A stretch of 64,000 nucleotides of DNA from a virus (lineage: Duplodnaviria > Heunggongvirae > Uroviricota > Caudoviricetes), in the IMG/VR virus record IMGVR_UViG_3300014043_000277. One strand, 5' to 3'. The notes under the pieces are model-generated. The model was given only the letters and a program-made list of their open reading frames with translations, was not told where the DNA came from and did no database searches. Position numbers and translations under genes: made by a program. Below are positions 42,217 through 60,860 of this stretch, piece by piece. Every line of letters begins with the position of its first letter. Within the stretch, counting starts at the first letter, position 1.

Positions 42217-44019
42217 TTATGATTTCATGATAGCATGACCGCAATCAAACATTGAAAAATAACCAATGTTATTATCCATTGCATGCGGGAGTTTCGTTTC
42301 AATCAATCGTATTGCTTCATTCTCATCATTAATATGTTCATTCATGCGTTCGTTAATGATGTCAACTGGGTTTCCCATTATCCAATCCGCATCCGTTTTA
42401 TAATTTGAAAACCATCTCATTGGATTAACATAATCAATGAAATGCAATCCTGCTTGTTCAAATGCATCAATGATTTCAAACCTGTTATCAACAAGAACAT
42501 TACAATTCGCATAATTATCACGAACATAATCAATCGCTTTAATAATAGTATTGCAATCAGGAACAGAATCTTTGAACGCGAATTCCAATGAAACACTATT
42601 ATTCTTTTCCATGCGAACATTGAAAACACATGAAATCATATCATCATAACCAATCGCATGAATGTCATCATGATGTATTCCAATGAATGAATTCAAACCA
42701 ATGAATTTCAGCATGTCATGTTCATCAGTATTTATGATGCTCATTTTGGAATTGCGTTCATTTCCTATTAATAATGATTTTAAATAGCGTTCCAATATAT
42801 AATGTTTGCCAAACATTATATTATCCAATGTAATCAGATTATATCCATTCTGTTTGCATTTAAGAAATTTATCCATGTGATAGTTGCATGGTTTTTCACT
42901 GCCAATCATGGTTTTGACTATCTGAAACCCTGAAATATTACTATTATGGGTGAATGACGGGCTGCATTCAATGCATACATTATGCTTATTATCGTCAATA
43001 ACAATGTCGATTTCATGACCGTCATTCATTATATGATAATCATGCATATGGTATTTCACATTCAATGCATCCAATATGTCCATTATTTTCTTCTCATACA
43101 TGGATGGTTTCGCATGGCCTGAATCAGATAAGGATTTCTGTATTTTATCCAATATTTCCGGCGATTTAGATGGATTATCGGTTCCATATTTCGCCATATA
43201 TGTTTTCGTTGCCTTGTCACGGGCGTCTTTCGACGTGAATGGCGTTTCTGAACCATATCTGTCGATGTTCGTTTTTCGTATTTTCCTTTTTATTGTTTCG
43301 TTCTTATTCGGATTTGTAACACCATAATTATTAATGAACGTATTTGTCTGCAATGATTTCATGTATTCAACCATCGCGTCATGGTATTCCTTTCCTCTGT
43401 CATTAGGGCGTGGTAAGCCATAGAAATATATAAGCTCATTTACATTTTGCGGTTTCAAATCATGATTTTTTGCTATCATGCTGGGAGACATGTTCTCATC
43501 CATGTATTCATGTTTCAAATCCTCATATGACATCCAATCCAATTTTTCAATAGTTGAATTACCGATGAATCGAATATTTTCGTTTGATAAAACTTGCATG
43601 ATAATGGCGCGTTCCGGCGATTTGCGGTTCCATCCATTCCGTTTCAGGAAAACCGTGTATTTTGTGTTATCATATGAATCCAATACTTTCTGTTTTATTT
43701 CTTCATATGATATTTGAGGCTGTTCAATGAATTGGCTTATTCCATATCCAATGCATGCGCGACTTATATCAACTGGTAGAACACTTATTTTATCTGCTGT
43801 TTCCTTCAGGTTTAAACCATTGTTTTTGCATGCAATGATGTCATCATATTTGCATTTGATGATATAATCAGGAGTTCCAGTGAACATCAGATTGTTCTGG
43901 GACATTATTTTTCTTACTTCCATACGTTCATAATGGTTATATCTATTCATTAAGATTTTATATGACATTTCTGTTTTATAAAACGCTTTTATTTCATTAG
44001 ACAATGATTCATTATCCAT
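42217..44019 (-). CDS. Putative free-standing homing-endonuclease-like protein (Hef/Vsr-like) between nrdD and nrdG
   Basis: YG..NP repeats and HEIDIVI..IEC..FTH..YH..K nuclease-like region; C-terminus related to 48622 and 55966. Confidence 0.6.
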   Translation of the reverse strand: MDNESLSNEIKAFYKTEMSYKILMNRYNHYERMEVRKIMSQNNLMFTGTPDYIIKCKYDDIIACKNNGLNLKETADKISVLPVDISRACIGYGISQFIEQPQISYEEIKQKVLDSYDNTKYTVFLKRNGWNRKSPERAIIMQVLSNENIRFIGNSTIEKLDWMSYEDLKHEYMDENMSPSMIAKNHDLKPQNVNELIYFYGLPRPNDRGKEYHDAMVEYMKSLQTNTFINNYGVTNPNKNETIKRKIRKTNIDRYGSETPFTSKDARDKATKTYMAKYGTDNPSKSPEILDKIQKSLSDSGHAKPSMYEKKIMDILDALNVKYHMHDYHIMNDGHEIDIVIDDNKHNVCIECSPSFTHNSNISGFQIVKTMIGSEKPCNYHMDKFLKCKQNGYNLITLDNIMFGKHYILERYLKSLLIGNERNSKMSIINTDEHDMLKFIGLNSFIGIHHDDIHAIGYDDMISCVFNVRMEKNNSVSLEFAFKDSVPDCNTIIKAIDYVRDNYANCNVLVDNRFEIIDAFEQAGLHFIDYVNPMRWFSNYKTDADWIMGNPVDIINERMNEHINDENEAIRLIETKLPHAMDNNIGYFSMFDCGHAIMKS

Positions 44020-44189: not shown

Positions 44190-46712
44190 TTATTGCTTAT
44201 GTGGATATTTTGCCCTATCGTCATAAAACACTTTAGCATTTCCATTAATTTCAATGCGTCCGGTTTCGCCATTTATTTCCTTTACACGAGATTCCAACTC
44301 TGAGTGACGACCATGAATCATCGGACGAATCTGTGGTTCACCGAGGTAGCCGCACGTCCGTTTAGTGACAACGCATTTTGACGGATCATCGTTTCCGCAT
44401 ACAGGGCACTGATATCCCGTCTCAGTCGGCGCAAAATCACCTTTATATCCACATACATGACATTCATCTATTGGAGTGTTGGTTCCGAGATAGTCAATAC
44501 CGATTTCATGCGCATAATCCCATATTGCTTCCAGTCCTTTCAGGTTCTGTCGCATTGATGGATATTCCACATAAACGATATGTCCGCCTGCGCTGTATTT
44601 CAGGAATGGCTGTTCAAACTCTAGCTTGCTTGCGGCACCTCCATTTTCAGCGGTATGGAAATGTTCCCTGCCCATGACTTCTTTAATGGAATCTGATGGT
44701 TCACCATCAGGGTTTCCTGATATCCATACAGGGCGATGGAATGAATTGGTATAGAAATCCTTATCTGTAATACCATCAATTCTTCCGAATTTCTCACGAT
44801 CCATTCTGTTGAACTTATCAGTTAGCGATTCAGCCGGTGTACCATATACTGAATAATGATAACCTTCTTCCTTCTCCCATTGCTTGCATAGTTCAGTCAT
44901 TTTTTCGACAATGGACAGGGCAAATGAGCGAGCATCTTCATCCCATCCCCAGTTGTTAACCCAGTCTTTTCCATAGAATCTCGCTGTTGTTTCATACAGT
45001 CCGATATATCCGAGTGATATGGTTGCGCGGTTGTTCTTCATGAGTGAATCCACGCTTTCATCTGGATTCAAACGACCTAATGCACCATATTGCCATAGAA
45101 CAGGAGCATTCAGTGGCGATGCTGTTTTAGTCCGTTGTATACGGAATTGCAATGCATGATGAGCCACTTCCATACGCTGATTGAAAATGCGCCAGAACCT
45201 TTTAATGTTTCCATTGCTTTCAATTGCGATGCGGGGAAGGTTGACTGATACAACTCCGAGATTCATTCTTCCATCATCGACAAGTTTTCCTGTTTCAGGA
45301 TCGCGCCATGCTTGCAGGAATGAACGGCATCCCATTGGTGCTTTGAAATCACCTGTTACATTAACAATGTTTTCATAGAAGAGGATGTCTGGATACATTC
45401 TCTTGCTGGAGCATTCCAGTGCGAGCTGTTTCAGGTCGTAATTAGGATCTGATGGTTCGCTGTTCACTCCATGTTTTATGGTGTATGTTAGTTTCGGGAA
45501 AATAGCGGTGCGGTGGTCTTCTCCGAGTCCTGCAATGCGTATGAGGAATATTGCGCGTGTTATCTCACGGGCGAACCAATCGGTTCCGAGTCCAAACCCT
45601 ACTGTGATAAATGGCGTCTGACCCGTGCTGCTGAAACACGTGTTGCATTGATATTCGAAAGTCTGCATTGCGTCATAAATATTCTTTCTGGTAAGTATTT
45701 TTGCATACAAACAACGGAGTTTGTCCAGTTCTGTTGCATTCTCATCGAATGGTTCGTCTTGAATGGCTGGACGTTCTGGAATATGCAAACGAGTGTTTTC
45801 ATTTGCTTTCAATGAATCCACTATTTTACGAGCCTGTTCTATATCCATTCCATCAGCGAGAACCATTGTAGCCATATCATAATTCTTACGATAGTTCTTT
45901 TCCGCGAACGGAGATAATATTTCATCGGCTCTGTTAACTGTTTGCCCGCCATACTGGTTGCTTGAAATGTTCTGAATTATTTGCGTTATTTGCGTCGCTG
46001 CTATTTCAATGCTTTTCGCTGGACCCATTGTGGCGTTACCGAGTTTGAATCCATTCTCTAGCATGTCTTTGAAATTAGGCAATGAGCAATTTGTCATTTT
46101 TGACAATGAATAGTCTGCGTCATGGAAATGAATATCGCCTTTTGTATGAGCATTGGAAACATCTTTTGGAGCAATACGATAGAACGATGCTTTACTTATG
46201 GCACCTGCAAGCAGATCGCGCTGTGTTGCATAAACGTTGCTGTCCTTGTTCGCATTCTCATTCATAATGCCGGCATCTTTGCGCAGGAATCGTTTCACGG
46301 CTTCGTTGGCATCAGTCGCTTTCGCCCTTTCTTTCATGCGTTTCATTCTGTATTCACTGTAAGCATCGAACACATCTTCCAGATGGTAGTCCTCCAATAG
46401 TGTTGATTCCACGATTGATTGGATTTCCTCGATGTTCACACTGTGTTCATAGCGTCCACGGATTTTTGATGTCGCGCTCATGGCGATGCCATGGATGAGT
46501 TGTTTATCATCCGCATCCAATGATTCTCCGTTCTTGCGGCGGATGTCCTTGATTGCGCCTGTTACCGCGTTCTCAATGGCTTCCGGATCGAAATCAACTA
46601 TCCTTCCGTCGCGTTTCTCAACTTTCAGCATGTCCTCAATGTTGTCATTGTATGCATTGTCCATGGTGTTCGTGATTCCTGCGCATGGTGTCAATACCGC
46701 TGTTCCTTCCAT
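44190..46712 (-). CDS. nrdD: Class III anaerobic ribonucleoside-triphosphate reductase
   Basis: ATP cone VEKRDGR, TNC, PMGCRS, TPAESL, YTNS, glycyl-radical RTCGYLG. Confidence 0.97.
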   Translation of the reverse strand: MEGTAVLTPCAGITNTMDNAYNDNIEDMLKVEKRDGRIVDFDPEAIENAVTGAIKDIRRKNGESLDADDKQLIHGIAMSATSKIRGRYEHSVNIEEIQSIVESTLLEDYHLEDVFDAYSEYRMKRMKERAKATDANEAVKRFLRKDAGIMNENANKDSNVYATQRDLLAGAISKASFYRIAPKDVSNAHTKGDIHFHDADYSLSKMTNCSLPNFKDMLENGFKLGNATMGPAKSIEIAATQITQIIQNISSNQYGGQTVNRADEILSPFAEKNYRKNYDMATMVLADGMDIEQARKIVDSLKANENTRLHIPERPAIQDEPFDENATELDKLRCLYAKILTRKNIYDAMQTFEYQCNTCFSSTGQTPFITVGFGLGTDWFAREITRAIFLIRIAGLGEDHRTAIFPKLTYTIKHGVNSEPSDPNYDLKQLALECSSKRMYPDILFYENIVNVTGDFKAPMGCRSFLQAWRDPETGKLVDDGRMNLGVVSVNLPRIAIESNGNIKRFWRIFNQRMEVAHHALQFRIQRTKTASPLNAPVLWQYGALGRLNPDESVDSLMKNNRATISLGYIGLYETTARFYGKDWVNNWGWDEDARSFALSIVEKMTELCKQWEKEEGYHYSVYGTPAESLTDKFNRMDREKFGRIDGITDKDFYTNSFHRPVWISGNPDGEPSDSIKEVMGREHFHTAENGGAASKLEFEQPFLKYSAGGHIVYVEYPSMRQNLKGLEAIWDYAHEIGIDYLGTNTPIDECHVCGYKGDFAPTETGYQCPVCGNDDPSKCVVTKRTCGYLGEPQIRPMIHGRHSELESRVKEINGETGRIEINGNAKVFYDDRAKYPHKQ

Positions 46713-48621: not shown

Positions 48622-50619
48622 TCATTGAATCCATGAGAACACACGATTCCCGGACGTGCCGACGCGCAGATAACCTTCCAGCATCATAATCTGATTATTA
48701 GTGAGTCCACATGCATCCATGCTTCCATAATGAGTTCCGAGCAACCTGTCAGCACCCTGCCGGATGAGTGATGAATCCCTCACATGATTTAATGAACCGG
48801 GTTGTGACCAGCATACGCTGGCTCCGGTAGGTTCAAGTTCAATGAAACCACATGAACGCATGAAAGAATCGCGCATGGTCGAATGATCGAAATCCACATA
48901 GGAAATAACAGAGGATGGATGCATGTCAGCATTGAATGCATTGAATAGTTTAACTGCCGCTCCACGAATAATCAAATCCCTGCGAACCGCATAACGCAGC
49001 CATTCCCATTCATAATTCGCATTATAACGCGGTTTGCCGAAAGAAGCGACGGCAATGATTTCACCTGCATGCATGAGAGCATAACAAGCGGATTGGCCAC
49101 GAACATCACCTTGCACATGATTCTCACGCAGGAACGCATTGATATCACGGGATTCAACTTTCACCACATTGCAATCATGTGCGGATAGTTTACATGTGAT
49201 CGGCATGATATGCGATGCAACCAGCCCACGCATGGTTTCATAGGAATCCCAATCATAGAACTGCAGATATGGTGTATTCAATGAATCCAAAGCGCTCATA
49301 GCCCTCTGATAATGATAATCCCGTGATACCGGCTTATGCTCACCGCAGGGTTGTGTGCATGAGTTCAGAATGCATTGGAACGGGACATCCATGTTATGAG
49401 TAATGGTCGGGTTGATGTCAATGATAACATGCCGGTCATTAAGAATGCATTCAATGTCCGCATTCATTCCGTTCCCGATTGATGGTTCAAAATGAATGTC
49501 GCAATTTAAATCATTATTAAGTTTCTCAGCGATATCCCGGTTCAGTTTGCTTATCCTATGATGCGACATGTAATCAGGATCATTCGCCGCCCGCTCCGCT
49601 ATCGTCTCTGATTTCCTCTGTTGGATTTCCGGAACCTTGCTTACATTGTCCACACCGTACTCATCAATGAGCGTTTCACGGATGCGCGCTTGTATTTCAG
49701 GTGATGAGAACGGATTCTCAACGCCGTACCTGTCAATCATCGTAGCGTTTATCTTATCCTTGACTTCCGGTGCCTGCAATGACCAGTCCACGCCGTATTT
49801 CTCGCGGTTGGTCGCCATTGCCTTCTCCTTGTATTCATCAGTCTGCGTATACCAGTCCACGCCGTATTTCTCCTGATTTTGCTTACGTAGATTTTCACGG
49901 AACTCTTCTGACTGCATTGGATGTTCAACGCCATATTTCTGTTTGCATGCCGACAATGCAGCCGCGCGAACAGCTGGAATATCCAATACGCTATCAACGC
50001 CATATTCTTTTTTCACAGTATCATGAATCTTATCTTTCACTTCCTGTGATTGCATAGGATAATCAGTGCCGTAATGCTCACGTGATGTTGCTTTCTTCTT
50101 CTCCTTGACATCATCCAATTGGCTTACATTATCGACATCATACTTGTCTTTTATCAGCTTCTTGAAATTCTCGGTGCCGAACTGATAATTCTTATCCGGA
50201 TTCTCCTCAAATGTTTTCTTGATTTTAGCTTTCACCTCATCAGATTGGAATGGATTATCAACACCATATTTTTCCTGCGAATTCCTGCGGCGTGCTTTTT
50301 TATCCTTGCCACCGGCATGGGATAAAGTCGCCGCGCATTTAGTCGAACAAGTCCGGACAGCCGCTTTCCTGCCATTGGATGTGTCAACAATGAAATCATG
50401 ACCGCATACAACACAATTGCGATGATGTTCCTTAGAACAGAATTTCTGCTGCGCGTATGTAGCCTCAAAATGCTCACCGCATATCACGCATGCCTTATCA
50501 TAGGTCTTCCTGTTTTTCGCGCGCGCTTGACGGACGCATTCTTTTGAACAACATGCCTCATGTCCTTTCGGTGTGAACAGCTTACCGCAATTCCTGCATT
50601 TCTTCTGTTTCTTAGCCAT
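48622..50619 (-). CDS. Zn-finger plus YGV-repeat putative homing endonuclease with a C-terminal GNAT/Mom-like domain
   Basis: Three CxxCG..F..CS motifs, about 9 tandem KYGVDxP repeats, and FLRENHVQG..WLRYA..ISYVD. Confidence 0.7.
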   Translation of the reverse strand: MAKKQKKCRNCGKLFTPKGHEACCSKECVRQARAKNRKTYDKACVICGEHFEATYAQQKFCSKEHHRNCVVCGHDFIVDTSNGRKAAVRTCSTKCAATLSHAGGKDKKARRRNSQEKYGVDNPFQSDEVKAKIKKTFEENPDKNYQFGTENFKKLIKDKYDVDNVSQLDDVKEKKKATSREHYGTDYPMQSQEVKDKIHDTVKKEYGVDSVLDIPAVRAAALSACKQKYGVEHPMQSEEFRENLRKQNQEKYGVDWYTQTDEYKEKAMATNREKYGVDWSLQAPEVKDKINATMIDRYGVENPFSSPEIQARIRETLIDEYGVDNVSKVPEIQQRKSETIAERAANDPDYMSHHRISKLNRDIAEKLNNDLNCDIHFEPSIGNGMNADIECILNDRHVIIDINPTITHNMDVPFQCILNSCTQPCGEHKPVSRDYHYQRAMSALDSLNTPYLQFYDWDSYETMRGLVASHIMPITCKLSAHDCNVVKVESRDINAFLRENHVQGDVRGQSACYALMHAGEIIAVASFGKPRYNANYEWEWLRYAVRRDLIIRGAAVKLFNAFNADMHPSSVISYVDFDHSTMRDSFMRSCGFIELEPTGASVCWSQPGSLNHVRDSSLIRQGADRLLGTHYGSMDACGLTNNQIMMLEGYLRVGTSGNRVFSWIQ

Positions 50620-50802
50620 GATTATAATCGTCTTTTTCTATCCGAATTCGTTATTTGCTTACATTTGCAATGATATCATTTAAATGTAAACAGGATGATT
50701 TTAAGCATGTTTTTTGAAATTTTTATATGAAAAACAACCATCAGAATTCCCATTATCCGATGGTTGTTTTAATTCTATTTCATTCATGCATGCATTATGC
50801 GT

Positions 50803-50991
50803 TCATCGTCCGAACAATTGATGAGCGCCGGGTGTTATCGTATCGGCAAGCCGGGTTATGGTATATAATGTCGCATCCCATATCCAGCTGACAACACCGA
50901 ACGGATCCCATCCGAACACACGCAGCACGGCAATCAGCACGGCTGCGCTGATGATGAAAATGAGCAGCCCCTTGAAAAACTTTCCAATCAT
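50803..50991 (-). CDS. Small membrane protein (62 aa)
   Basis: GAGG RBS, TM helix; hairpin at 50731-50770 downstream. Confidence 0.7.
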   Translation of the reverse strand: MIGKFFKGLLIFIISAAVLIAVLRVFGWDPFGVVSWIWDATLYTITRLADTITPGAHQLFGR

Positions 50992-51063
50992 GACAGATAC
51001 CTCACATTAAAACGATTAACCTTATAATACATTATATCTATCAGTTATATGATATGAGTCATA

Positions 51064-52296
51064 TCAATCCACAAGTTCCTCCATGTCCTCATCCCAGTCA
51101 TTACGAGGATCATGCTTGATACCAGCCTCGCCTTTCAGTACAGGCTTGTCAAAGCCGGATGAATCACCTGGTGCCTGCAATGCCTGCACTGCCTCCGCGT
51201 GCGCCGCAGCCTGCTGTTCGCGTGCGGCGGCGATGGCTTCAATGTCATCATTGTTATCATCCAATGTCATGTTCTGCAAACCGGCGACATCAGCTGAATT
51301 TGTATTCACTGATGGTCCTGTGGACAATGGCGTCAAATCAGGGTTCAATCCTTTCTTGGCAAGCCAATCGACCATCCATGTGTAATCCTTCGTGAAATAC
51401 ACTTGAATGCGCTGCGGTTTCTGTCCGACATTCATGACAGCCGCACGGCCTTTTGGTGCCGCAGGTGTTTGTGTTCCTGTTCCATCATCGAACAACATGC
51501 TGGATGCAGTTGATGTCAAATGTCCACAGCCCGCCCTGAACATAAGATTTTCCTTTAATTCTCCGGGCACTAGTTTCGCGTCTGGTCGCTGCGTGGCGAT
51601 TAGCAAATGGACGCCCGCAGCACGTCCCAGTCGGGCTATGGATCCAATGATTGACTGAGCCTGTCCTTTCAGCTCCATTTCCTTTTTGGCTTCATCGCTT
51701 CCCTTGCCGCCACTCATGTCCAACAATTGTCCACATTCGTCCACCATGATGAGCAATGCGGGTCCGTGGTTCGGCAGGTCCGCGAAATTGTTCACGCCTG
51801 CCTTCTGCATCTGATCGTAACGGCTCATCATCTGGTCATTGCCGAATTTCAGTATTTCAACTGCGTCCTCCAGTGTCGTTGCGATTCCGAGCACGGTATC
51901 CGAGAAAATCGTATACGGCGAAAGCTCCACGCGCTTCAAATCGATGCCGAGGAATTTGATATCTTTACTGGCCGCTATGCAATGAAACACGCAAAGACGT
52001 TGAAGAACCGATTTACCGCCGCCCGTATTATGCGTCAAAACATTACTATTGACCGCATACAGATGGTCGCATGCATCCACTTTAATGCATCTCACTGGTT
52101 CTTTTTCTATTTCCGTGCTGTTTTTGATGCGATACCATCCGCCTTTCGCACCGGGAATGAGGAAATTGTCCACACCTGCATTCAAAATGTCCTCATATGT
52201 AAGATTCTTTATTTCGCTGTCGCGTTTATCCTTGACTGTCCAGATGTGCCTTCCGTCGCATTTAACTTTCATTGTGTTCATTGTATCCATGTTCAT
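51064..52296 (-). CDS. Split-intein C-half (about 90 aa) fused to the C-terminal FtsK/SpoIIIE ATPase domain
   Basis: ..HIW..PVRCIKV..VLTHN|TGGGKS, then IDLKRVEL, Walker B IMVDE, IARLGRAAGVHLLIATQRPD. Confidence 0.9.
   Translation of the reverse strand: MNMDTMNTMKVKCDGRHIWTVKDKRDSEIKNLTYEDILNAGVDNFLIPGAKGGWYRIKNSTEIEKEPVRCIKVDACDHLYAVNSNVLTHNTGGGKSVLQRLCVFHCIAASKDIKFLGIDLKRVELSPYTIFSDTVLGIATTLEDAVEILKFGNDQMMSRYDQMQKAGVNNFADLPNHGPALLIMVDECGQLLDMSGGKGSDEAKKEMELKGQAQSIIGSIARLGRAAGVHLLIATQRPDAKLVPGELKENLMFRAGCGHLTSTASSMLFDDGTGTQTPAAPKGRAAVMNVGQKPQRIQVYFTKDYTWMVDWLAKKGLNPDLTPLSTGPSVNTNSADVAGLQNMTLDDNNDDIEAIAAAREQQAAAHAEAVQALQAPGDSSGFDKPVLKGEAGIKHDPRNDWDEDMEELVD
52027..52296 (-). other. IntC of split class-3-type intein (blocks B, F, G)
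   Basis: CDGRHIW (block B His plus Trp), VRCIKV (block F Cys), LTHN followed by Thr. Confidence 0.85.
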
Positions 52297-53968
52297 TGAA
52301 TATCATGTATTTTTCATGGTTTTCTGTCATGTTTGAACCGATGAATGGTATCATTGCATATATGGCCGGACATTTGAATATTATGATGACTTCGGATGAG
52401 AATCTTATGATGTTGTTTGATGTGTCGTTGAATCCGGGTGTGAATCCTGATTCAATCGCGGCTGGTTCTGCTAAAAAGTTAAATTGGCGTTGCGTTCATG
52501 ATAACAGGCATGTGTTCAGCATGTCGCCGTCGAATCTTGTTAATCAGGGATATCGTTGCCCTGCTTGTCTGGGAAACATGTGCATTGCAGGCGTGAATGA
52601 TCTTGCGACTGAGCATCCGCGTTTGGCGCGGTTGTTTGATTCCAATGCTAACAATGTGAAGCCATCAATGATCACATCGCATGGACGCGCCGCCACAATC
52701 CATGATGAGCATGGCAGGAAAATTAACCCGTCATGGATTTGCCGTAACGGTCATTCTTTCAAACGTGCGTTGAAAGACATGGCTTCATTGGATGATTCCG
52801 GGAAACTCATGGATTTTGATGGTTGCCAGTATTGTTCAGGCAGGAAGGTTCTTCCTGGTTTCAATGATGTCGCCACGATGCATCCTGAATTAGTGCCTTA
52901 TTGGTCGCCTGCGAATAAGTTGGAACCGACTGATGTTACCAGTGGTTCCAATGAACACATAATATTGCGTTGTCCGAAAGATGGCCATGAATGGACTACG
53001 ACTGTAAATCGTGCGTGCATTAAAGGTTTCACTTGCGCTGATTGTGCTGGGAAAGTGTTGCATCCTGGTGTTAATGATGTGGCGACATTGTGTCCATGGC
53101 TTGTGAAACAATGGACGCCATCAAATGATAAATCACCATCTGAGGTTCGTGCGAATGACAGTACGTATATCGCGGATTGGATTTGCGATGAATGTGGTTA
53201 CGAATGGCGTGTGAAGGTGTCATCACGATGCTATTTCAATTCCGGTTGTCCTGCTTGTTCGGTATTCAATGCAACGGTTAATAAGAATAATTCATTGGCT
53301 GCGAAACGGCCTGATATTGCGAGATTCTTCGATCCTGAGTTGAACAATGGCGTGACAGCGGATGAAATCAGGGCTGGTTCCAGCAGAATATTCAATTGGC
53401 GTTGTCCGAATTATCCTGATCATGTTTTCACCATGAGCGTATATGCGCGCTGTAAGATGAAAGGCGATTGCGTGTATTGTTCGAATGATCGTGTTCTCAT
53501 TGGGTTCAATGATCTTGCCACGACGCATCCGGGATTATGCTTGGATTGGTCGCCATTGAACACATTGAATCCAACTGATGTTGTCGCTGGTTCTGATATC
53601 ACTGTGAAATGGAGTTGCCATGTTTGCGGATGGGATTGGGAAACCCCTGTGTATAAACGGGCGACGGCAGGGCGCGGCTGTCCGAATTGCGCTCGAATAT
53701 TGTTGAATTCGGGTTCGAGTAATTTTGAGCGTGAAATTCATGATTTCATGCAATCATTGTGTCCGGATATTGGTTTCATTTCGAATGACAGGAAAGTGTT
53801 GAATGGCAGGGAATTGGATGTGTATGCTCCGGATTTGCATATCGCATTGGAATTCAATGGTTTGAAATGGCATTCATTGGATGCATTGCAATCAAGGACT
53901 TCGGATGCGTTCAATTATCATCAGTGTAAAACAAAGGATTGTCTGGATGATGGTATAATGCTTGCTAT

Positions 53969-55427
53969 CAATCATGTGAGAGAACACCGCACTTCAGGGC
54001 GGTGATGAATCACGCACACATAACCAACTCTCTATATGGTGCTTTCAATCGAGAATTATCTGGTATTTTTAAATCAAACTTTGCATTATCCAAGAGAATA
54101 TGATATCATAGTAAGCATGAGTTCATACAGGCGCTATAATTATCGTGCATACCTCACGCAAGGTCAACGCGCGGCTTTAACGCGCCTGTATGGAGCGTGT
54201 AGGTATGCTTACAACTGGGTTATAGACCAACGTGAGATCATGCGCACCCGCCATGGTAAGATGCAGACTTACGCGCAGCTGAGTAGCATGTTCACACAGT
54301 TGAAACAAGACCCTGACCACCAGTGGCTTCAGAAGATGTCATCCACACCGTTGCAACAAGCTATCCGTCATGCTGACACAGCGTATAAGAACTTCTTCAG
54401 GCTATATAATGCTGGTAAAACCAAGATCATTGTTAATAAGCGCACTGGTAGGAAACGCATCACAGGTAAACCGCGCTTCAAGAGTCGGAGGGACGGCGAG
54501 CAATCCGCTGAGTTCACCAAAGCTGCACGATTCAAGGTCGAGCATGTGAATGGATGCAAGTGGGGTTTTCTAACATTGCCTAAAATCGGACGCATTAAGA
54601 TTCGTTGGACACGCGATATGCCGTCAATGCCGAATAGTGTGAGCATGATGAAGCATGCTGATGGCACGTACGAGGTTAGTTTCGTTGTGCAGGTCGATGA
54701 CATTATTATCGCACCAGAACCGCTGCATGATTCGTGTGGTATCGACATGGGATTGGATTCTCTCATGAGCATCGTTTACACGGACGGAACCCGTGAGAAA
54801 ATACCGCATCCTCGCACGCTTAAGAAACATGCTCACAAACTACGCAAGCTTGATAAACAAATGGCACGGCAGAAGAAAGGTTCAAACAATCATGCGAAAA
54901 CACGGACACTGAGAGCAAGAGAATACAGTCATATCAAGAACCAGCGCAAGGACATGGCGTTCAAGCTGGCTTCTAAGGTGGTGGGCGAGAACCAAGCCGT
55001 CGCTTTGGAGACACTGAATGTTAAGGGTCTTGCACGCACCTGTCTGGCGAAAAGCCTGTTGGATGCGAACTGGACTCGCATTATCGACCGCATCCAGCAG
55101 CTCGCCGCGCAGTCTGGCAGGGATTTTCATCAGATTGACCGCTGGTATCCCAGCAGTCAGATATGCTCCGTGTGCGGGCATCGTGATGGTAGGAAACCAT
55201 TGAATGTGCGCGAATGGCAGTGTCCTAATTGTGGCGCGTATCTGGATCGTGATTGGAATGCTGCTTTGAATATTCTTGACGCGGCTGGACTAGCCGAGTC
55301 ATTAAACGCCCTGGCTTGCGCCAGTCACAACGCTGACGCCAATGAAGCGGGAACCCACCGAACCGCAAGCCTCCATTAAGGCGACCGGCGTAGGAATCCC
55401 ACACCTTCATGAGTGGGAGGAAGTCAA
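53969..55427 (+). mobile_element. IS200/IS605-family non-autonomous element (tnpB only, IS1341-like), 1459 bp
   Basis: Subterminal hairpins at both ends, right end GTCAA, inserted 3' of TGCTAT, no target duplication, precise excision restores the host ORF. Confidence 0.92.
54117..55379 (+). CDS. tnpB: RNA-guided endonuclease TnpB
   Basis: HTH_OrfB N-terminus, RuvC GIDMG / LETL / DRDWNAA, Zn finger CSVC..CPNC. Confidence 0.95.
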   Translation: MSSYRRYNYRAYLTQGQRAALTRLYGACRYAYNWVIDQREIMRTRHGKMQTYAQLSSMFTQLKQDPDHQWLQKMSSTPLQQAIRHADTAYKNFFRLYNAGKTKIIVNKRTGRKRITGKPRFKSRRDGEQSAEFTKAARFKVEHVNGCKWGFLTLPKIGRIKIRWTRDMPSMPNSVSMMKHADGTYEVSFVVQVDDIIIAPEPLHDSCGIDMGLDSLMSIVYTDGTREKIPHPRTLKKHAHKLRKLDKQMARQKKGSNNHAKTRTLRAREYSHIKNQRKDMAFKLASKVVGENQAVALETLNVKGLARTCLAKSLLDANWTRIIDRIQQLAAQSGRDFHQIDRWYPSSQICSVCGHRDGRKPLNVREWQCPNCGAYLDRDWNAALNILDAAGLAESLNALACASHNADANEAGTHRTASLH

Positions 55428-55965
55428 GTTGTATGAACCGGATTGGTTGTCCCATAGTGAGATAACAATGGATTGGCTGCGGCGCTGGTTGGATGTGCCT
55501 GCTGTGAGTGCCATGGATGCATCATGTTTGCATGTGAAATCATTGAATGCGGGTGATGATGGTTGGAATGATGCGGTTTCATGGTTGTCCGGGAATTCAA
55601 TTCATCAGCGGATTGGTTCACGGACGGTCATGCTCATTGATGATGATTCATGCATCCATGCGTGCATGATGCTGGATGGGAATGTCATTATCGGTTATGC
55701 GGAACGGTTGGATGAGAATGTGAATAATGGTTTCAATATGCTTGTGTCCTATGCGGGTGCCGTGTCCATGCGTTCAATGTTGCCGCCGTTGTCCTGTATG
55801 CATGTCGATTCGGTTGCGTTGGATGGTTCTCCGGTTGCGTATGAGGTTCACGGGAAATCATTGGAACGTGTTGATTGCATTGATGGCAGAGATTCAGTGA
55901 ATATTATCATTGGTTCCGGTGATTATATGTTCCGGTTATGATTCGGATGCGATATAATTGATTAT

Positions 55966-56967
55966 ATGGATACATATTATGATATTGTTAAGAGCGTCAT
56001 TGAGTCAACTGGCGTTGATTATGTTGAGAATGACAAGTCCGTGTGGCTTGACGGGTTGGATTTCGCTGTTCCTTCCAGGAAACTTGCGATTAAGATTAAT
56101 CGTGTAAGCATTGAGAACAATGATGTCACTGCAACCGTTCCTATCCGTGAGCGCGGTTATCATAAGAAAATGCATGATACGGTTGAGAAGGCAGGATGGG
56201 AATTGTTGTCATTGGATGACAGGCAGCTTGTTGATCCGAGCTGGTCGAACATCACGAAACCGTTTATTCTGATGAAAATCGCCGGAACAGCCGAGCATGT
56301 GATTTATGGGCGTGATGTTTCCATTATGCGCGCTGAGGTTTCGGCTGATTTGCGTTATGCGAATGATTTCCTGAAAAGGTATCATTTCGCGGGGCATGCA
56401 TCCGCACAGGATACTTTCCTTATTCGTTGTGAGAATCCGCGTAATGGCGTGCATGTCGGTGATGTCGTTGGCGTGTTCTCATTGCGTAATGTCCGTAATA
56501 AACCGGACATGATTGAAATCGCGCGTGTCGCATGGCGTCCTGGTTATCAGGTTCGTTATGGCTTGTCGAAAATCATCGATGTGATTAAAGAGACTCATCC
56601 TGAACGTCATCGTATTCTTTCATTCAGCGATAACCGAATGGGTAACGGTCAGTCATATGGCAAGGCTGGCTTCCGTTATGATGGTGATACTTCCCCTTCC
56701 CTGTGGTTCATTAATCCGGATGATCCGAATGATTCCTATTCATGGCAGGTTGCGACAAGCTGGGGTGCGAAACAGGGTGTGATTGCGAAATCATTCGAGA
56801 AGCATGGGTTGACCGTCCCGCCGAACTGCACGAATCAGAAGGCGCGTGAAATCGTTGAAACCACTCTTCCGCATCGTCATGATGGAGGCAATGGTTACAG
56901 GTCATATGTTGATTGCGCGAATAAACGATGGCTATTGGATTATGATATGAGCGCAGATAAGAAATAA
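55966..56967 (+). CDS. Hef-like endonuclease/Mom-like GNAT domain protein
   Basis: LDFAVP..LAI..YH..GWELL and FLKRYHFAG..EIARV..SFSD..G..Y..GFRY.GDT. Confidence 0.65.
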   Translation: MDTYYDIVKSVIESTGVDYVENDKSVWLDGLDFAVPSRKLAIKINRVSIENNDVTATVPIRERGYHKKMHDTVEKAGWELLSLDDRQLVDPSWSNITKPFILMKIAGTAEHVIYGRDVSIMRAEVSADLRYANDFLKRYHFAGHASAQDTFLIRCENPRNGVHVGDVVGVFSLRNVRNKPDMIEIARVAWRPGYQVRYGLSKIIDVIKETHPERHRILSFSDNRMGNGQSYGKAGFRYDGDTSPSLWFINPDDPNDSYSWQVATSWGAKQGVIAKSFEKHGLTVPPNCTNQKAREIVETTLPHRHDGGNGYRSYVDCANKRWLLDYDMSADKK

Positions 56968-57007
56968 TGTTATCATTTGTTCACATTTACGGACAAAAAG
57001 ATGGTTA

Positions 57008-57047
57008 AAAATCCGTGGGAATGTTTGATTATGTTCCCACGGATTTT
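57008..57047. terminator. Bidirectional terminator between the 55966 gene and the ftsK N-half gene
   Basis: AAAATCCGTGGGAA/TTCCCACGGATTTT. Confidence 0.75.
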
Positions 57048-57206
57048 GCATGTTTGATAATCGTAATCATTGGTTTGACGATTCATCATTATGACGCAAT
57101 CAGGATTTGATGATAATGATGTCGAACCAGGGTTCCGAAAGAATATATGAAATTTCGTAGCGGTGATTATGCCAGCATGGGATTCAATCTATTTTTTATC
57201 ATCTAA

Positions 57207-58967
57207 TCATTCATCAACCGGTTCCAATTCCAGTTCATAAAGATGTTCAGGGTTCATTATCCGTGAAACGCCTGTAACCGTCGTGTAAGCGCCGTTTGAA
57301 CCGAGAATGCGTTCTCCTTCATGTATGTCCATTAACGTCGTTTGTGAGCCATCCTCGCGCGTTATAACGGTATCCAAAGCGAGAGGCGAACCGCAATTAT
57401 GCGTCGGAATGCCATGATGACATGCATTCAACTTGTTCGCAGTGGTTTCGGCATCATGAGTCGCTGCAATCAGGAACGTGTGCGTCGGGTCATCCACACG
57501 AATGCATTTCACTGGCTCCGGTGTCATGAATGCGATTGAATACACCTGCCAGTTAATGAGTCGTTCACCATCATGCACGGGTGATAATACAGGACGTATT
57601 CCATGTTGGACAAGTTCATATATTTCCATGCTTGTCATTTCCTTGACCGGTTCGCCGGTGTCATAATCGCCTGACTGCATTGCATGCGCTGTCGCGTTCA
57701 CATCGACAGGCCAGATATGTTCCGATGCTGCTTTCACAGTATGCATCCTGTCTTTGTCATCGTTGCGATCAATGAAAACAATGCGGAACATTTCATCCGG
57801 CGTATGTGTTTCCGTGAGTCCGGTGATTGTTGTTTCAACTCCCATTTCCGATAGCACGACATCATCTTTCCGTAATGCGTCCATTCTGACTGCATTGTAT
57901 TCATCAGCGGCGTTCTTGTTCTTACGCCAGATGAGAGTGTCAACCGATAATGGAACCAACGCCATCGGGGTGACTTTCAAATCCCAGTATGCTTCGCCGG
58001 AAACGGTTCGCCCGAGTTTGATTTGATTCCATGGGCCTTTATCGAAATCAACTGGTAATGATGCCATTGTCGGCAATGGCGGCACTGTTCTCAGATAAGC
58101 GGTATGACCGGGGAAATCCCATCCGCTTATTGTTTTCATTTGACCTGGGTGTTTCTTATCCGGGACATCTCTTTCCGCGACCCATTCCGTTACATGCCCG
58201 AATGCCTCATTCAAATGCATGAGCGTATCATCGGTTCCCGCTTCACGGAATGTAGCCGGGAATGTAACCTGCATGTCCAATGGCGTTGTTCTGAATTCAG
58301 CGATGCGTGGTTGTTTCACATGTCCGCGTTTATCAGGTTTCGGGATGTCCTTTTCAAATTCTTCCAGTTCACCATCCTCCATGGCTTTCGTGCGTCCATC
58401 AGCGATTAACTGTGGCTCCTCTGATGTTGTCCATTGCCCTATTTTAATGATTTCACGTGGATTCATGTTCGCGTCAGTTCCCATGTGCGCTTTCACGACA
58501 GTGAAAATCGTATCATAAATATCCTTCTCCGCTTTTATTCTTGCTGAACCCTGCTGAGCCGCGACAACAGCCCATGACATTCCAATGAGAATGCCAATCA
58601 CTGTCAATGCGGTTTGGCTGGTGTTAATTCCCATGATTCCGATAATGGATCCAATTGCAATCAGGATTACATACAGTTTCCGCCATGTCATCGCGGCAGG
58701 ACCTGGGTCAACGGCGATTCCCCATTTGTTCCGTTTCTCCTGCTTTTTTGAAATCAATCTGGTGTCAGTTAATGCCTGTTTGATTTTCAATGTGAATTCA
58801 GGGCGTTTTGGTTCGAATAAGTCAGTTGATTTCAAACCTTTCGCACGACGTTTTTTCGGATCATTGAATGATGACTGTCGAATCATGTCGATTATCCATA
58901 GGACTAATTCCGCAAGGATAAGCGGTCCTATGGAACACGCGGCTATAACGCCTATTATCGTCATCAT
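57207..58967 (-). CDS. FtsK/SpoIIIE (coupling-protein-like) N-terminal half with TM segments, one complete intein and a split-intein N-half
   Basis: TM helices; IKLGRT..WDLKVTPMALV|intein|CGS|IntN*. Confidence 0.88.
   Translation of the reverse strand: MMTIIGVIAACSIGPLILAELVLWIIDMIRQSSFNDPKKRRAKGLKSTDLFEPKRPEFTLKIKQALTDTRLISKKQEKRNKWGIAVDPGPAAMTWRKLYVILIAIGSIIGIMGINTSQTALTVIGILIGMSWAVVAAQQGSARIKAEKDIYDTIFTVVKAHMGTDANMNPREIIKIGQWTTSEEPQLIADGRTKAMEDGELEEFEKDIPKPDKRGHVKQPRIAEFRTTPLDMQVTFPATFREAGTDDTLMHLNEAFGHVTEWVAERDVPDKKHPGQMKTISGWDFPGHTAYLRTVPPLPTMASLPVDFDKGPWNQIKLGRTVSGEAYWDLKVTPMALVPLSVDTLIWRKNKNAADEYNAVRMDALRKDDVVLSEMGVETTITGLTETHTPDEMFRIVFIDRNDDKDRMHTVKAASEHIWPVDVNATAHAMQSGDYDTGEPVKEMTSMEIYELVQHGIRPVLSPVHDGERLINWQVYSIAFMTPEPVKCIRVDDPTHTFLIAATHDAETTANKLNACHHGIPTHNCGSPLALDTVITREDGSQTTLMDIHEGERILGSNGAYTTVTGVSRIMNPEHLYELELEPVDE
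57210..57386 (-). other. IntN of split class-3-type intein (59 aa)
   Basis: PLALDTVITREDG..LMDIHEGERILGSNG..TTV (block A region), then stop. Confidence 0.85.
57396..57953 (-). other. Contiguous class-3-type mini-intein (186 aa)
   Basis: Starts PLSVDT; ASEHIW (block B), PVKCIRV (block F Cys), PTHN followed by Cys; no endonuclease domain. Confidence 0.88.
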
Positions 58968-58971
58968 GAAT

Positions 58972-59538
58972 TCATTCCTTTCCGGATAGTTTTTCAGTTA
59001 ACGTTCCCAGCCCGATACTGCCTTTAACATGCAGTTTTACACTATCATATGATATGAAATATCGTTTATTTTCATGTTCGCAATACATATAACGGCTATC
59101 CCTGCTGTTATTCAGGTTATCGCCGCGAACAAACAATGAATTCGCCGGTATTGTGAACTTATTGGATTCAATGTTTCCATTCATCCTATCGCATCCTCCG
59201 GTGTAACCGGTTTCATTATCTGCGAGAACGCCATTAACGCGGATTCTTCCATTCATGTCAATGCTTATTTCATCACCGGGGATTCCGATTACCCGTTTAA
59301 TGAGATATTCATCATCGCCTGTCCATCCGTCATCATCATGGAAAACGATGATGTCATTGCGTCCAATGTCATCATGTGATGTGGAGCCATAAACAATATC
59401 ACCATCATGCAATGCTGGCATCATGCTTTCACCGGATACATGAGCGAGATTATCCGTCATGCTTAAACCGGCACCGCAGCTTATGATTATCACTGTTATT
59501 ATAAGTATTATGCTTATTGTTTTCTGTCTTATTGTCAT
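58972..59538 (-). CDS. Signal peptidase I (S26)
   Basis: GESMMP, IKRVIGIPGD, GDN..NSRDSR. Confidence 0.92.
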   Translation of the reverse strand: MTIRQKTISIILIITVIIISCGAGLSMTDNLAHVSGESMMPALHDGDIVYGSTSHDDIGRNDIIVFHDDDGWTGDDEYLIKRVIGIPGDEISIDMNGRIRVNGVLADNETGYTGGCDRMNGNIESNKFTIPANSLFVRGDNLNNSRDSRYMYCEHENKRYFISYDSVKLHVKGSIGLGTLTEKLSGKE

Positions 59539-60860
59539 GATTTCATGTCATCATCCCCGACTTTTTCAAATACGTTGAAACCGCTTGCACCGAGAAGTTC
59601 CACGTTGCTTGTCTGCATGAATGACCGTTCGCGTATTTTATCGCCAGGCATGCTTTCCAATAATAAATCCTGCTGATCACCTTTTGTCCATGTGAGTATG
59701 ATTCCGGCGCTTGAATAAGCATTACGGACGATTTCAACGGTTTGTTTCAAATCCTCAACATCATAGGATGTTACAACCATGCGATACACGCCTTCCAGCC
59801 ATGGATTGTCGTTCTTATTAGTGTAAGCCTCCAATTCCATTGCTTTCTGATAATCCTCCTGTAAATCCAATGAAATATTATGACCTCCTGATGCCGCGTT
59901 GCCGCCCTCATCTTCCAAATCCATTTTCTGATGGGTTACTTCCTTTTTCATTTTCTTATTCGGAATAAGATCGAACCTGCCATACATGTCAAATGGCAAT
60001 CCCATTTTCTGCATCATGTAAATCCATGGTGTTCCACCTGGAACCTGCATGTTCTCAGGGAATTTACTGAATGTCAATGTCGCCCTGTATCCAGTGAGTA
60101 CATGACCCATCATTGGTTGTGAGATTTCCGTCCATAGTTTATTTTTGATGAGAATTCCGCCGAGTTCGCGAACCATGTCTCCCTTGCCCCATCTTCCATT
60201 CGCTGGAACGTCAAGATACGGTGTCGGCATTGACGGATAGAATGTGCGCTTCATGACAAGCGCGATTTCCTCGGCTTCCGGGCGCGTCGCCATCATTTCG
60301 CTGCTATGGAAGAAATTATAATAATCCTCCTCCATTGCTTTCGCGTTTTTGATTTCCTTATCACTGATTGAATAATCATCGATACCAGCCGGAACGAAAA
60401 TAATGTCCTTCACATATTGCAATGCCTGATCGAAACCGGCTTCCAGTTGACGCATGAATCCTTTCATGCTGACATCATGCCTGTCGGCCATTTTCACTCC
60501 GACGTAAATTTTACGGCTCATGTATTCACGTGATTTCAAATATTGGACTTGATTCGCGAAATATTTATTGAAACCGGGTTTCCTATCCCAGCTTTCCGTC
60601 GTGCGTAGGAATTGATCCTCCCAGTGATCAATGTCCACTGGCGTGTTCGTGATGATGAGATGCATTGGAATGCGTTCATCCTTATTCGCCATCATATCAG
60701 CGAATGCTTTCGTCATGTTGTTAAGCATGTTCAATTTGGAACCGTCATCCATGAAATCATAGCTCTGTGTATTCACGGTGAAATACGCCCATATTTCATT
60801 TTTGCTGAATACAATGTTGTCAACGATTCCGCGCATCTGAATATCTAATTTCTCTGCCAT
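59535..60860 (-). CDS. VirB4/TcpF-like conjugation protein, N-terminal domain only
   Basis: DNIVFS..EIWAYF..SYDF start and GDQ.DLLLESMPG end resemble the Gram-positive VirB4 N-domain; no Walker motifs. Confidence 0.55.
   Translation of the reverse strand: MAEKLDIQMRGIVDNIVFSKNEIWAYFTVNTQSYDFMDDGSKLNMLNNMTKAFADMMANKDERIPMHLIITNTPVDIDHWEDQFLRTTESWDRKPGFNKYFANQVQYLKSREYMSRKIYVGVKMADRHDVSMKGFMRQLEAGFDQALQYVKDIIFVPAGIDDYSISDKEIKNAKAMEEDYYNFFHSSEMMATRPEAEEIALVMKRTFYPSMPTPYLDVPANGRWGKGDMVRELGGILIKNKLWTEISQPMMGHVLTGYRATLTFSKFPENMQVPGGTPWIYMMQKMGLPFDMYGRFDLIPNKKMKKEVTHQKMDLEDEGGNAASGGHNISLDLQEDYQKAMELEAYTNKNDNPWLEGVYRMVVTSYDVEDLKQTVEIVRNAYSSAGIILTWTKGDQQDLLLESMPGDKIRERSFMQTSNVELLGASGFNVFEKVGDDDMKS

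Follow-up and report, generated by a model that had tools for sequence, protein, structure and literature searches.

Naturally split inteins underlie protein ligation tools, and few of their natural break points are known. In the fractured genes described in 2009 (gp41-1, NrdJ-1, IMPDH-1 and others), two open reading frames (ORFs) carry the intein halves and a free-standing homing-endonuclease gene lies between them (PMC2677866). In class-3 inteins, a non-nucleophilic residue 1 co-varies with a Trp at B:12, a Cys at F:4 and a Thr at G:5 (the WCT triplet), and the Pro1/Thr+1 intein of MP-Be DnaB is the prototype (PMC2807308). One naturally split member of this class was reported in 2020, that of AceL NrdHF, which is divided at the canonical site into 98 + 48 amino acids (aa), has an MCT triplet and holds a GIY-YIG gene between its halves; a survey of 1701 class-3 inteins contained no other split one (PMC7891396). 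Atypical natural split sites are known only for the class-1 TerL inteins AceL-TerL and GOS-TerL, whose N-terminal fragments (IntN) have 25 or 37 aa (PMC11766414). Here we analyse a 64,000-nucleotide stretch (the window) of the virus record IMGVR_UViG_3300014043_000277 (Caudoviricetes), in which the gene of an FtsK/SpoIIIE-type (TcpA-like) ATPase is encoded in two halves 4.9 kb apart. The best explanation is that a large uncultured mobile element carries this ATPase as a fractured gene, interrupted by a putative class-3 intein that is sited between the Ser and the Thr of Walker A (CGS/TGGGKS) and naturally split into 59 + 90 aa. From the comparative evidence we estimate a probability of roughly 0.77 that the two halves undergo protein trans-splicing.

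The fractured-gene layout is the one already published (PMC2677866). Those cases too come mostly from mobile elements and were found in metagenomes, but they are class-1 inteins with canonical splits, their endonucleases are GIY-YIG or Vsr-like and no FtsK-type hosts are listed among them, whereas the genes between the halves in the window are encoded on the opposite strand and include one that an insertion sequence has disrupted. The locus resembles AceL NrdHF in several respects: in both, a class-3 intein is naturally split, the fractured host gene belongs to what is probably a mobile element or a phage, the halves flank an endonuclease gene that stands free, residue 1 is non-nucleophilic and the block F Cys is the presumptive first nucleophile. 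AceL NrdHF, however, starts with Ala, is without two conserved His and resides in a ribonucleotide reductase, whereas the FtsK intein is broken before block B, has the canonical H/W-C-T-H-N residues and Pro1, lies in a Walker A loop and has DUF4379 nuclease genes as neighbours; AceL NrdHF (6zgq) was a weak match in our structure searches (E 4.5e-3 and 7.9e-3). The Pro1, Thr+1, block B His/Trp, block F Cys and Thr-His-Asn of the FtsK intein are also found in MP-Be (mycobacteriophage Bethlehem) DnaB, MchDnaB-1 and Msm DnaB, which likewise sit within a P-loop NTPase of a mobile element or host but are contiguous and splice in cis. A break N-terminal of the canonical site, leaving most of the Hint fold on the C-terminal fragment (IntC), is shared with AceL-TerL and GOS-TerL; these are class-1 inteins with a Cys1 or Ser1 nucleophile on a 25-37-aa IntN and a break at another loop, near the S1 site, whereas the IntN of the window has 59 aa and Pro1 and ends before block B.

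The sequence-only reading that our analysis followed up knew of no described example of such an intein. This was too strong, because the split class-3 intein of AceL NrdHF had already been published (PMC7891396); in addition, a class-3 intein with Pro1 is the prototype of the class (PMC2807308) and fractured genes were known (PMC2677866). We found nothing relevant in the literature when looking for split inteins of jumbo phages or of proteins like FtsK and TcpA, and a class-3 intein with the canonical WCT triplet and a break between motifs N2 and N3 appears to be undescribed in the literature searched. We are inclined, though only slightly, to regard it as the first natural class-3 intein that combines a non-canonical split (between N2 and N3), an inert N-fragment and all catalysis on the C-fragment with a place in the same Walker A loop as another class-3 intein, a cis-splicing one three residues away.

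Two gene halves and one intein

The features discussed below are collected in Table 1, where N-half and C-half are the two parts of the ATPase gene, intein 1 is the complete intein within the N-half, and IntN2 and IntC2 are the two fragments of the split intein (intein 2).

Table 1. Features of the ATPase gene halves and of the interval between them, in window coordinates.
Feature	Coordinates	Strand	Description	Basis
C-half gene	51064..52296	minus	410 aa: IntC2, then T91-GGGKS and FtsK/SpoIIIE domain	ORF list, motif positions
C-extein	51064..52026	minus	T91-GGGKS (rest of Walker A), FtsK/SpoIIIE ATPase domain, acidic tail	
IntC2, 90-aa C-fragment of split intein	52027..52296	minus	aa 1-90	
Free-standing endonuclease gene, 5' part	52272..53968	plus	five DUF4379 treble-clef zinc fingers and nuclease core	Pfam DUF4379, 3.5e-60
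TnpB-only IS200/IS605-type insertion sequence, 1461 bp	53969..55429	plus	inside endonuclease gene; tnpB ORF 54036-55379	
Endonuclease gene, 3' remainder	55430..55941	plus	matches C-terminal part of P0279	collinear with L006 6577-8320, 96.6%
333-aa gene	55966..56967	plus	homing-endonuclease-like part and Mom/GNAT-like part	also in L006
Terminator-like hairpin	57008..57047		14-bp inverted repeat, perfect, flanked by T runs; between convergent N-half and Mom-like genes	
N-half gene	57207..58967	minus	586 aa: membrane-anchored N-domain, intein 1, CGS, IntN2, stop	ORF list, motif positions
IntN2, 59-aa N-fragment of split intein	57210..57386	minus	aa 528-586, PLALDT...LEPVDE; motifs N1/A and N2 only	
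Cys-Gly-Ser extein between the two inteins	57387..57395	minus	contains first Gly of Walker A	
Intein 1	57396..57953	minus	aa 339-524, complete 186-aa cis mini-intein	
N-extein	57954..58967	minus	aa 1-338, ending ...TPMALV (start of P-loop strand)	

According to the sequence-only reading, one gene ends in an intein N-fragment of 59 aa and the other begins with a C-fragment of ~90 aa followed by TGGGKS; the ORF list and a motif script confirm both at the coordinates given in Table 1. A stop codon (57207-57209) directly follows IntN2. P1, L2 and T6 of IntN2 are invariant in the 11 sequences aligned. The relatives in this alignment are 10 sequences, counting the cis relative P0183, and all N-halves among them terminate 2-30 aa beyond ...LEP.

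Class membership was assessed with the motif positions defined in PMC2807308 and PMC7891396. Neither intein has a Cys, Ser or Thr nucleophile at position 1, which is occupied in both by a Pro that is invariant in the aligned relatives. IntC2 contains block B H17-I-W19, block F VRC70IKVD and block G LT88-H89-N90 followed by T91 at +1, that is, the Trp B:12, Cys F:4 and Thr G:5 triplet together with a block B His, a penultimate His, a terminal Asn and a Ser/Thr/Cys+1 residue. Among 18 aligned C-half sequences, no substitution occurs at C70, H89, N90 or T91, and at least 90% conserve H17 and W19. IntN2 carries no catalytic residue; the block B His/Trp, block F Cys, block G Thr-His-Asn and +1 Thr are all in the C-half. 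The earlier proposal of a Pro-initiated class-3 intein, split before block B and with its catalytic residues on IntC, is therefore upheld by Pro1, the Trp-Cys-Thr signature and the profile alignments given below.

Intein 1 reads PLSVDT...HIW...VKCIRVD...PTHN, with Pro1, the block B H/W, the block F Cys, T-H-N and Cys+1, and its catalytic columns are invariant among 12 relatives. A Cys+1 has been reported for only one WCT intein without an N-terminal nucleophile, Bvi IcmO (PMC2807308). Intein 1 and the split intein are paralogues (BLASTP E 5e-6 and 2e-5; hhalign 97%), and the two class-3 inteins stand within one Walker A loop (57387-57953), spaced by the three residues Cys-Gly-Ser.

When compared with the model of intein 1 (a 194-aa sequence, to which the residue numbers of these alignments refer), the family profile of IntN2 aligns with residues 5-69 (hhalign 97.5%, E 7.5e-12) and that of IntC2 with residues 72-168 (97.0%, E 9.7e-11). 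The two separately encoded fragments cover one complete intein from end to end, without overlap and with no piece missing, and their stop and start points are conserved in relatives. A three-piece split of this intein, with a missing middle fragment, was considered and rejected, since the two fragments tile the complete paralogue without a gap. The break falls in the hairpin loop 68-73 of the model, between strands 60-67 and 74-81 and just before the block B residues H84/W86. A MAFFT alignment that placed the IntN fragments on the C part of the cis intein was discarded, and one that included the intein 1 paralogues was used instead.

The AlphaFold2 model of intein 1, built with 12 relatives, is a Hint domain (predicted local distance difference test, pLDDT, 87.5), and its best Foldseek matches in the PDB are the class-3 inteins MchDnaB-1 (6riy; E 1.1e-6, TMt 0.82) and Msm DnaB (6bs8), although sequence identity is just 14-18%. 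The relative P0183 carries intein 2 uncut, with a poorly modelled insert of ~115 aa exactly where the split occurs. Its model (block means of pLDDT 92-98 for the N-part, 11-60, and 84-97 for the C-part, 171-250) builds a Hint core from both parts and matches gp41-1, MchDnaB-1 and Msm DnaB at TMt 0.84-0.91 among the top seven matches. The Hint fold is thus found in the models of intein 1 and P0183, and IntN2 and IntC2 are placed in it by profile alignment to intein 1. The P0183 gene itself (L009:6001-8190) begins inside intein 1, block A being absent, and closes, past Walker B, with the N-fragment of a third intein; because of these two ends, the ATPase of this lineage seems to be cut at other places.

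Empty sites, conserved layout and selection

Past IntC2, the C-half matches the Pfam family FtsK_SpoIIIE (PF01580), starting at position 40 of the profile and scoring 51.4 bits where the cut-off is 24 (1.3e-13), and the C-extein matches PHROG 1358 (FtsK/SpoIIIE-like, 2.4e-39). The protein has the FtsK/SpoIIIE domain with Walker A and Walker B, and its Walker A, G-STGG-GKS, is whole only once the CGS of the N-half joins the TGGGKS of the C-half. The N-extein can be aligned with the unsplit relatives P0136 and P0137. Together with P0127 and P0130, these proteins keep intein 1, are without intein 2 and read ...PTHN-CGSTGGGKSVLQR, and their THN-CGSTGGGKS is the exact junction predicted for the spliced product; the earlier claim that removal of the inteins restores an FtsK P-loop agrees with what these relatives display. 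At the locus L011, such a gene, contiguous and of 859 aa, has an S26 peptidase gene upstream and NrdD downstream, as in the window, and no endonuclease gene. The search for uninterrupted homologues that had been suggested as a check was therefore successful, and in the four unsplit relatives and at the L011 locus the extein halves are contiguous at the precise site of the intein.

The split is itself conserved. C-half homologues are numerous in metagenome assemblies, where ~34 clusters retain the IntC2 start, more than 15 relatives begin at the same point as the C-half of the window, and the catalytic set persists in homologues whose identity across the N-terminal region that was aligned is as low as 32-55%. 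Nine N-half clusters (40-66% identity) retain intein 1, CGS, IntN2 and a common stop point, the same build is shared by N-half relatives spanning 40-97% identity, and the split layout is retained in relatives down to about 40-55% identity. The closest locus, L006 (93% identity, on a 277-kb contig), has the order RecA, DnaG, TcpF-like N-half, S26 peptidase, N-half, DUF4379 genes, C-half and NrdD, with the DUF4379 genes between the halves on the opposite strand. L002 (53% identity, 326-kb contig) has the gene order of L006, and its halves likewise flank DUF4379 genes. In L007/L008 (66%) the two halves are encoded on different strands at a distance of 7.5 kb, and in L001 no N-half is found within 10 kb upstream of the C-half. 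Halves that may be far apart and on opposite strands, and that need protein trans-splicing, are also a feature of the split intein of cyanobacterial DnaE (compare L007), which differs in being a class-1, canonically split, chromosomal intein with no endonuclease gene.

These comparisons bear on the possibility that an FtsK-like gene has been broken by mobile DNA (the endonuclease genes and the TnpB insertion sequence) and that its halves are decaying. The interval is indeed full of selfish elements, one nested in another, and there is no clear ribosome-binding site 5' of the C-half. Yet both halves are open, their stop and start points are identical in many lineages at 40-97% identity, the layout outlasts changes of gene order that include an inversion, and the break lies precisely within an intein and not at a random place. 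Relaxed selection, which the sequence-only reading had named as a possible refutation, is not seen either: between the window and L006, the ratio of nonsynonymous to synonymous divergence (dN/dS) is 0.10 for IntN2, 0.22 for IntC2, 0.24 for intein 1, 0.08 for the N-extein and 0.07 for the ATPase part of the C-extein. A dead gene is accordingly very improbable. In the same comparison, dS is 0.03-0.10 for the N-half and 0.24-0.39 for the C-half, and this several-fold difference suggests inter-lineage recombination around the fracture.

Joining could also take place at the level of RNA or DNA, by intron splicing, RNA trans-splicing or programmed excision, and in the window the halves do lie on the same strand, in the correct order and within 4.9 kb. 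However, no Rfam family, and hence no group I or group II intron, was found in 50500-59600 even at E 0.1, and a repeat search found no direct repeats flanking the interval. Such joining would leave the intein codons in frame, it would have to accommodate the opposite-strand genes and the terminator hairpin that lie in the interval, and it meets halves on opposite strands in L007/L008; we consider it scarcely credible. The terminator and antisense genes had been part of the sequence-only reading, and they were recovered here as the hairpin and as intervening ORFs that are all on the plus strand (the DUF4379 nuclease gene, TnpB and the Mom-like gene). Taken together, a split kept in many lineages, the dN/dS values and the absence of joining signals argue against a dead gene and against joining of nucleic acids, and make protein trans-splicing the best explanation. 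The trans-splicing implied by the first reading is, in this sense, well supported by comparison, being strongly suggested by conservation, purifying selection and the relatives with an empty site.

Other relatives are divided further. The middle pieces P0175, P0177, P0195 and P0236 consist of IntC2, an extein that runs from TGGGKS past Walker B, and then the IntN of another intein (IntN3), and short C-terminal pieces also occur among the relatives (P0036, P0197, P0207, P0239 and others). Because middle and short C-terminal pieces are both found, the ATPase of some relatives is, as judged from their sequences, encoded by three or more genes. In the distant relatives P0045, P0047, P0052, P0072, P0142, P0153 and P0229, an intein occupies another P-loop site, GK/S, and is either split with an IntC of ~38 aa or a large cis intein of ~600 aa (the long forms P0142, P0153 and P0229), with the block F Cys in both.

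Predicted splicing route and points that weigh against it

In the route that we propose, the N-half and the C-half would be translated separately and intein 1 would leave the N-half by cis splicing. IntN2 would then dock into IntC2 to give one complete Hint fold, in which C70 of the C-half (the block F Cys), helped by H17/W19, would attack the Ser-Pro N-junction and form a branched thioester. Transfer of the N-extein to Thr+1 (T91), followed by cyclisation of Asn90 and an O-N acyl shift, would yield ...PMALV-CGS-TGGGKS..., the only form with a complete P-loop.

The first steps of this route would also suffice for the halves to bind through their intein fragments and remain unspliced. There is precedent for such docking, in that fragments of the phage Aeh1 NrdA are reported to be held together by mobile-element sequences without splicing (PMC3045599), and the spliced product is so far a prediction. 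The predicted complex of IntN2 and IntC2, which speaks weakly and to association alone, scored 0.59, whereas the highest score among three controls was 0.06. The runs agreed in at least 94% of contacts, and partner pLDDT was at least 69. Of 80 solved complexes, 58 reached the mark applied, as did 2 of 110 mismatched pairs; only 7 of the 80, but both mismatches, did so with scores of up to 0.60. Since split-intein complexes have already been solved, the pass may reflect likeness to these and not binding. Against docking alone, C70, H89, N90, T+1, H17 and W19, which serve only the chemistry, are invariant or nearly so over deep divergence. Docking without splicing would also keep ~150 Hint residues within GxxxxGKS after the first Gly, where a working P-loop is unlikely, whereas intein-free relatives have an uninterrupted loop. 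We therefore hold docking without splicing to be unlikely, if less so than the other two alternatives.

Several points nevertheless count against trans-splicing. We infer the association of the fragments, the class-3 chemistry and the spliced product from computation. The co-folding of IntN and IntC that the sequence-only reading had called for gave a score above its controls, with a verdict of weak support. Its proposed alignment to intein profiles gave no match with the models of Pfam and NCBIfam, which recognised neither intein, even at E 1 or 0.1. Faint pre-computed Hom_end_hint matches exist on some N-halves; with no family-model match, the intein assignment rests on fold, profile comparison and motifs. 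The Thr of the catalytic triplet, T88, is replaced in 2 of the 18 aligned C-halves (Ser in P0019, Val in P0236). Splicing of intein 1 would have to proceed with IntN2 as its near C-extein. Neither a Shine-Dalgarno sequence nor a convincing promoter was found 5' of the C-half, where the single promoter-like match (9/12) is not above those in shuffled sequences; the scan for promoters and terminators yields no more sites than shuffles do and is uninformative on expression of the C-half. Finally, the endonuclease gene between the halves is inactivated in the window by the TnpB insertion sequence, and because this gene is broken the cassette is probably no longer mobile there.

The interval, its neighbourhood and implications

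A free-standing homing-endonuclease gene lies between the halves in the window, in L002 and in L006, as identified by homology, and it is probably through such intervening genes, as homing machinery, that the cassette spread. The intact endonuclease of L006, P0279, is an ORF of 725 aa with at least five DUF4379 treble-clef fingers and matches PHROGs 559 (7.5e-34) and 3339 (1.5e-19), annotated as HNH or homing endonuclease. The insertion sequence of the window, whose TnpB ORF matches Pfam OrfB_IS605 (2.2e-22) and Cas12f1-like_TNB (6.5e-21), is absent from L006, where a blastn break point leaves its flanks contiguous. A search of PDB sequences with the nuclease portion of the endonuclease gene returned no meaningful match; by our own reading of its motif this portion looks Vsr-like or PD-(D/E)xK-like. 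The 333-aa gene matches PHROG 3339 ('homing endonuclease', 8.2e-16) and the Mom-like PHROG 1384 (7.2e-7), with a Pfam Mom match (8.6e-4) under the cut-off. The hairpin downstream of it was seen by eye and by repeat search, as its loop exceeds the limit of the terminator scan, which missed it.

Related nucleases recur around these genes. In L004 (L004:1-9949, a 76%-identical relative), the stretch upstream of the C-half holds an opposite-strand array of at least six DUF4379 genes, and the zinc-finger nuclease family appears to be locally expanded there. Two further large homing-endonuclease/DUF7487 genes (42217-44019 and 48622-50619; PHROGs 3339 and 12131) lie near nrdD and the C-half in the window, a region dense in selfish nuclease genes. 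The NrdD of L011 (L011:6450-10100, 1216 aa) has weak Intein_splicing and LAGLIDADG matches, and that of the window (44190-46712, 840 aa) is seemingly without them.

On the other side, the N-half gene begins 4 nucleotides beyond a signal-peptidase gene (58972-59538). A neighbouring 441-aa ORF at 59535-60860 resembles TcpF/VirB4, an ATPase of conjugation; the NCBIfam match (NF052333, 9.6e-16) falls far short of the cut-off for that family and covers positions 4-430 of an 813-position profile. Because the resemblance is to the N-terminal half only, this second ATPase of the element may also be in pieces. The family of split ATPases is found on contigs of 145-680 kb, and a giant phage and a conjugative megaplasmid are the candidates for the element. 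The region had no match in a phage collection by megablast, the C-half found only distant FtsK proteins of less than 35% identity among plasmids and phages by tblastn, and a search for related loci in IMG/VR and a set of one genome per species found no relative.

If the proposed splicing takes place, activity of the ATPase would need one cis and one trans splicing event, a possible post-translational checkpoint, whereas the gating of conjugation raised by the sequence-only reading is speculative. The break before block B would be a third natural break point beside the canonical site and the short-IntN site of TerL. The intein could also be developed into a new tool for orthogonal ligation with cysteine-free junctions; an IntN free of nucleophiles, Ser/Pro and Asn/Thr junctions and a chemistry carried by IntC would be attractive under oxidising conditions and for ligation of multiple fragments. 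As for the family, a widespread and as yet uncultured group of very large mobile elements, its FtsK/TcpA-like ATPase has been invaded at several sites, two of them in the P-loop of the window and, in relatives, the GK/S site of the P-loop and one after Walker B. Some of the invading inteins are in separately encoded pieces, and the halves are free to move around the genome. With loci that have an empty site, a cis intein bearing an insert at the break point, or a split form whose endonuclease gene is either intact or broken, the family would be a natural system for the study of how fractured genes originate.

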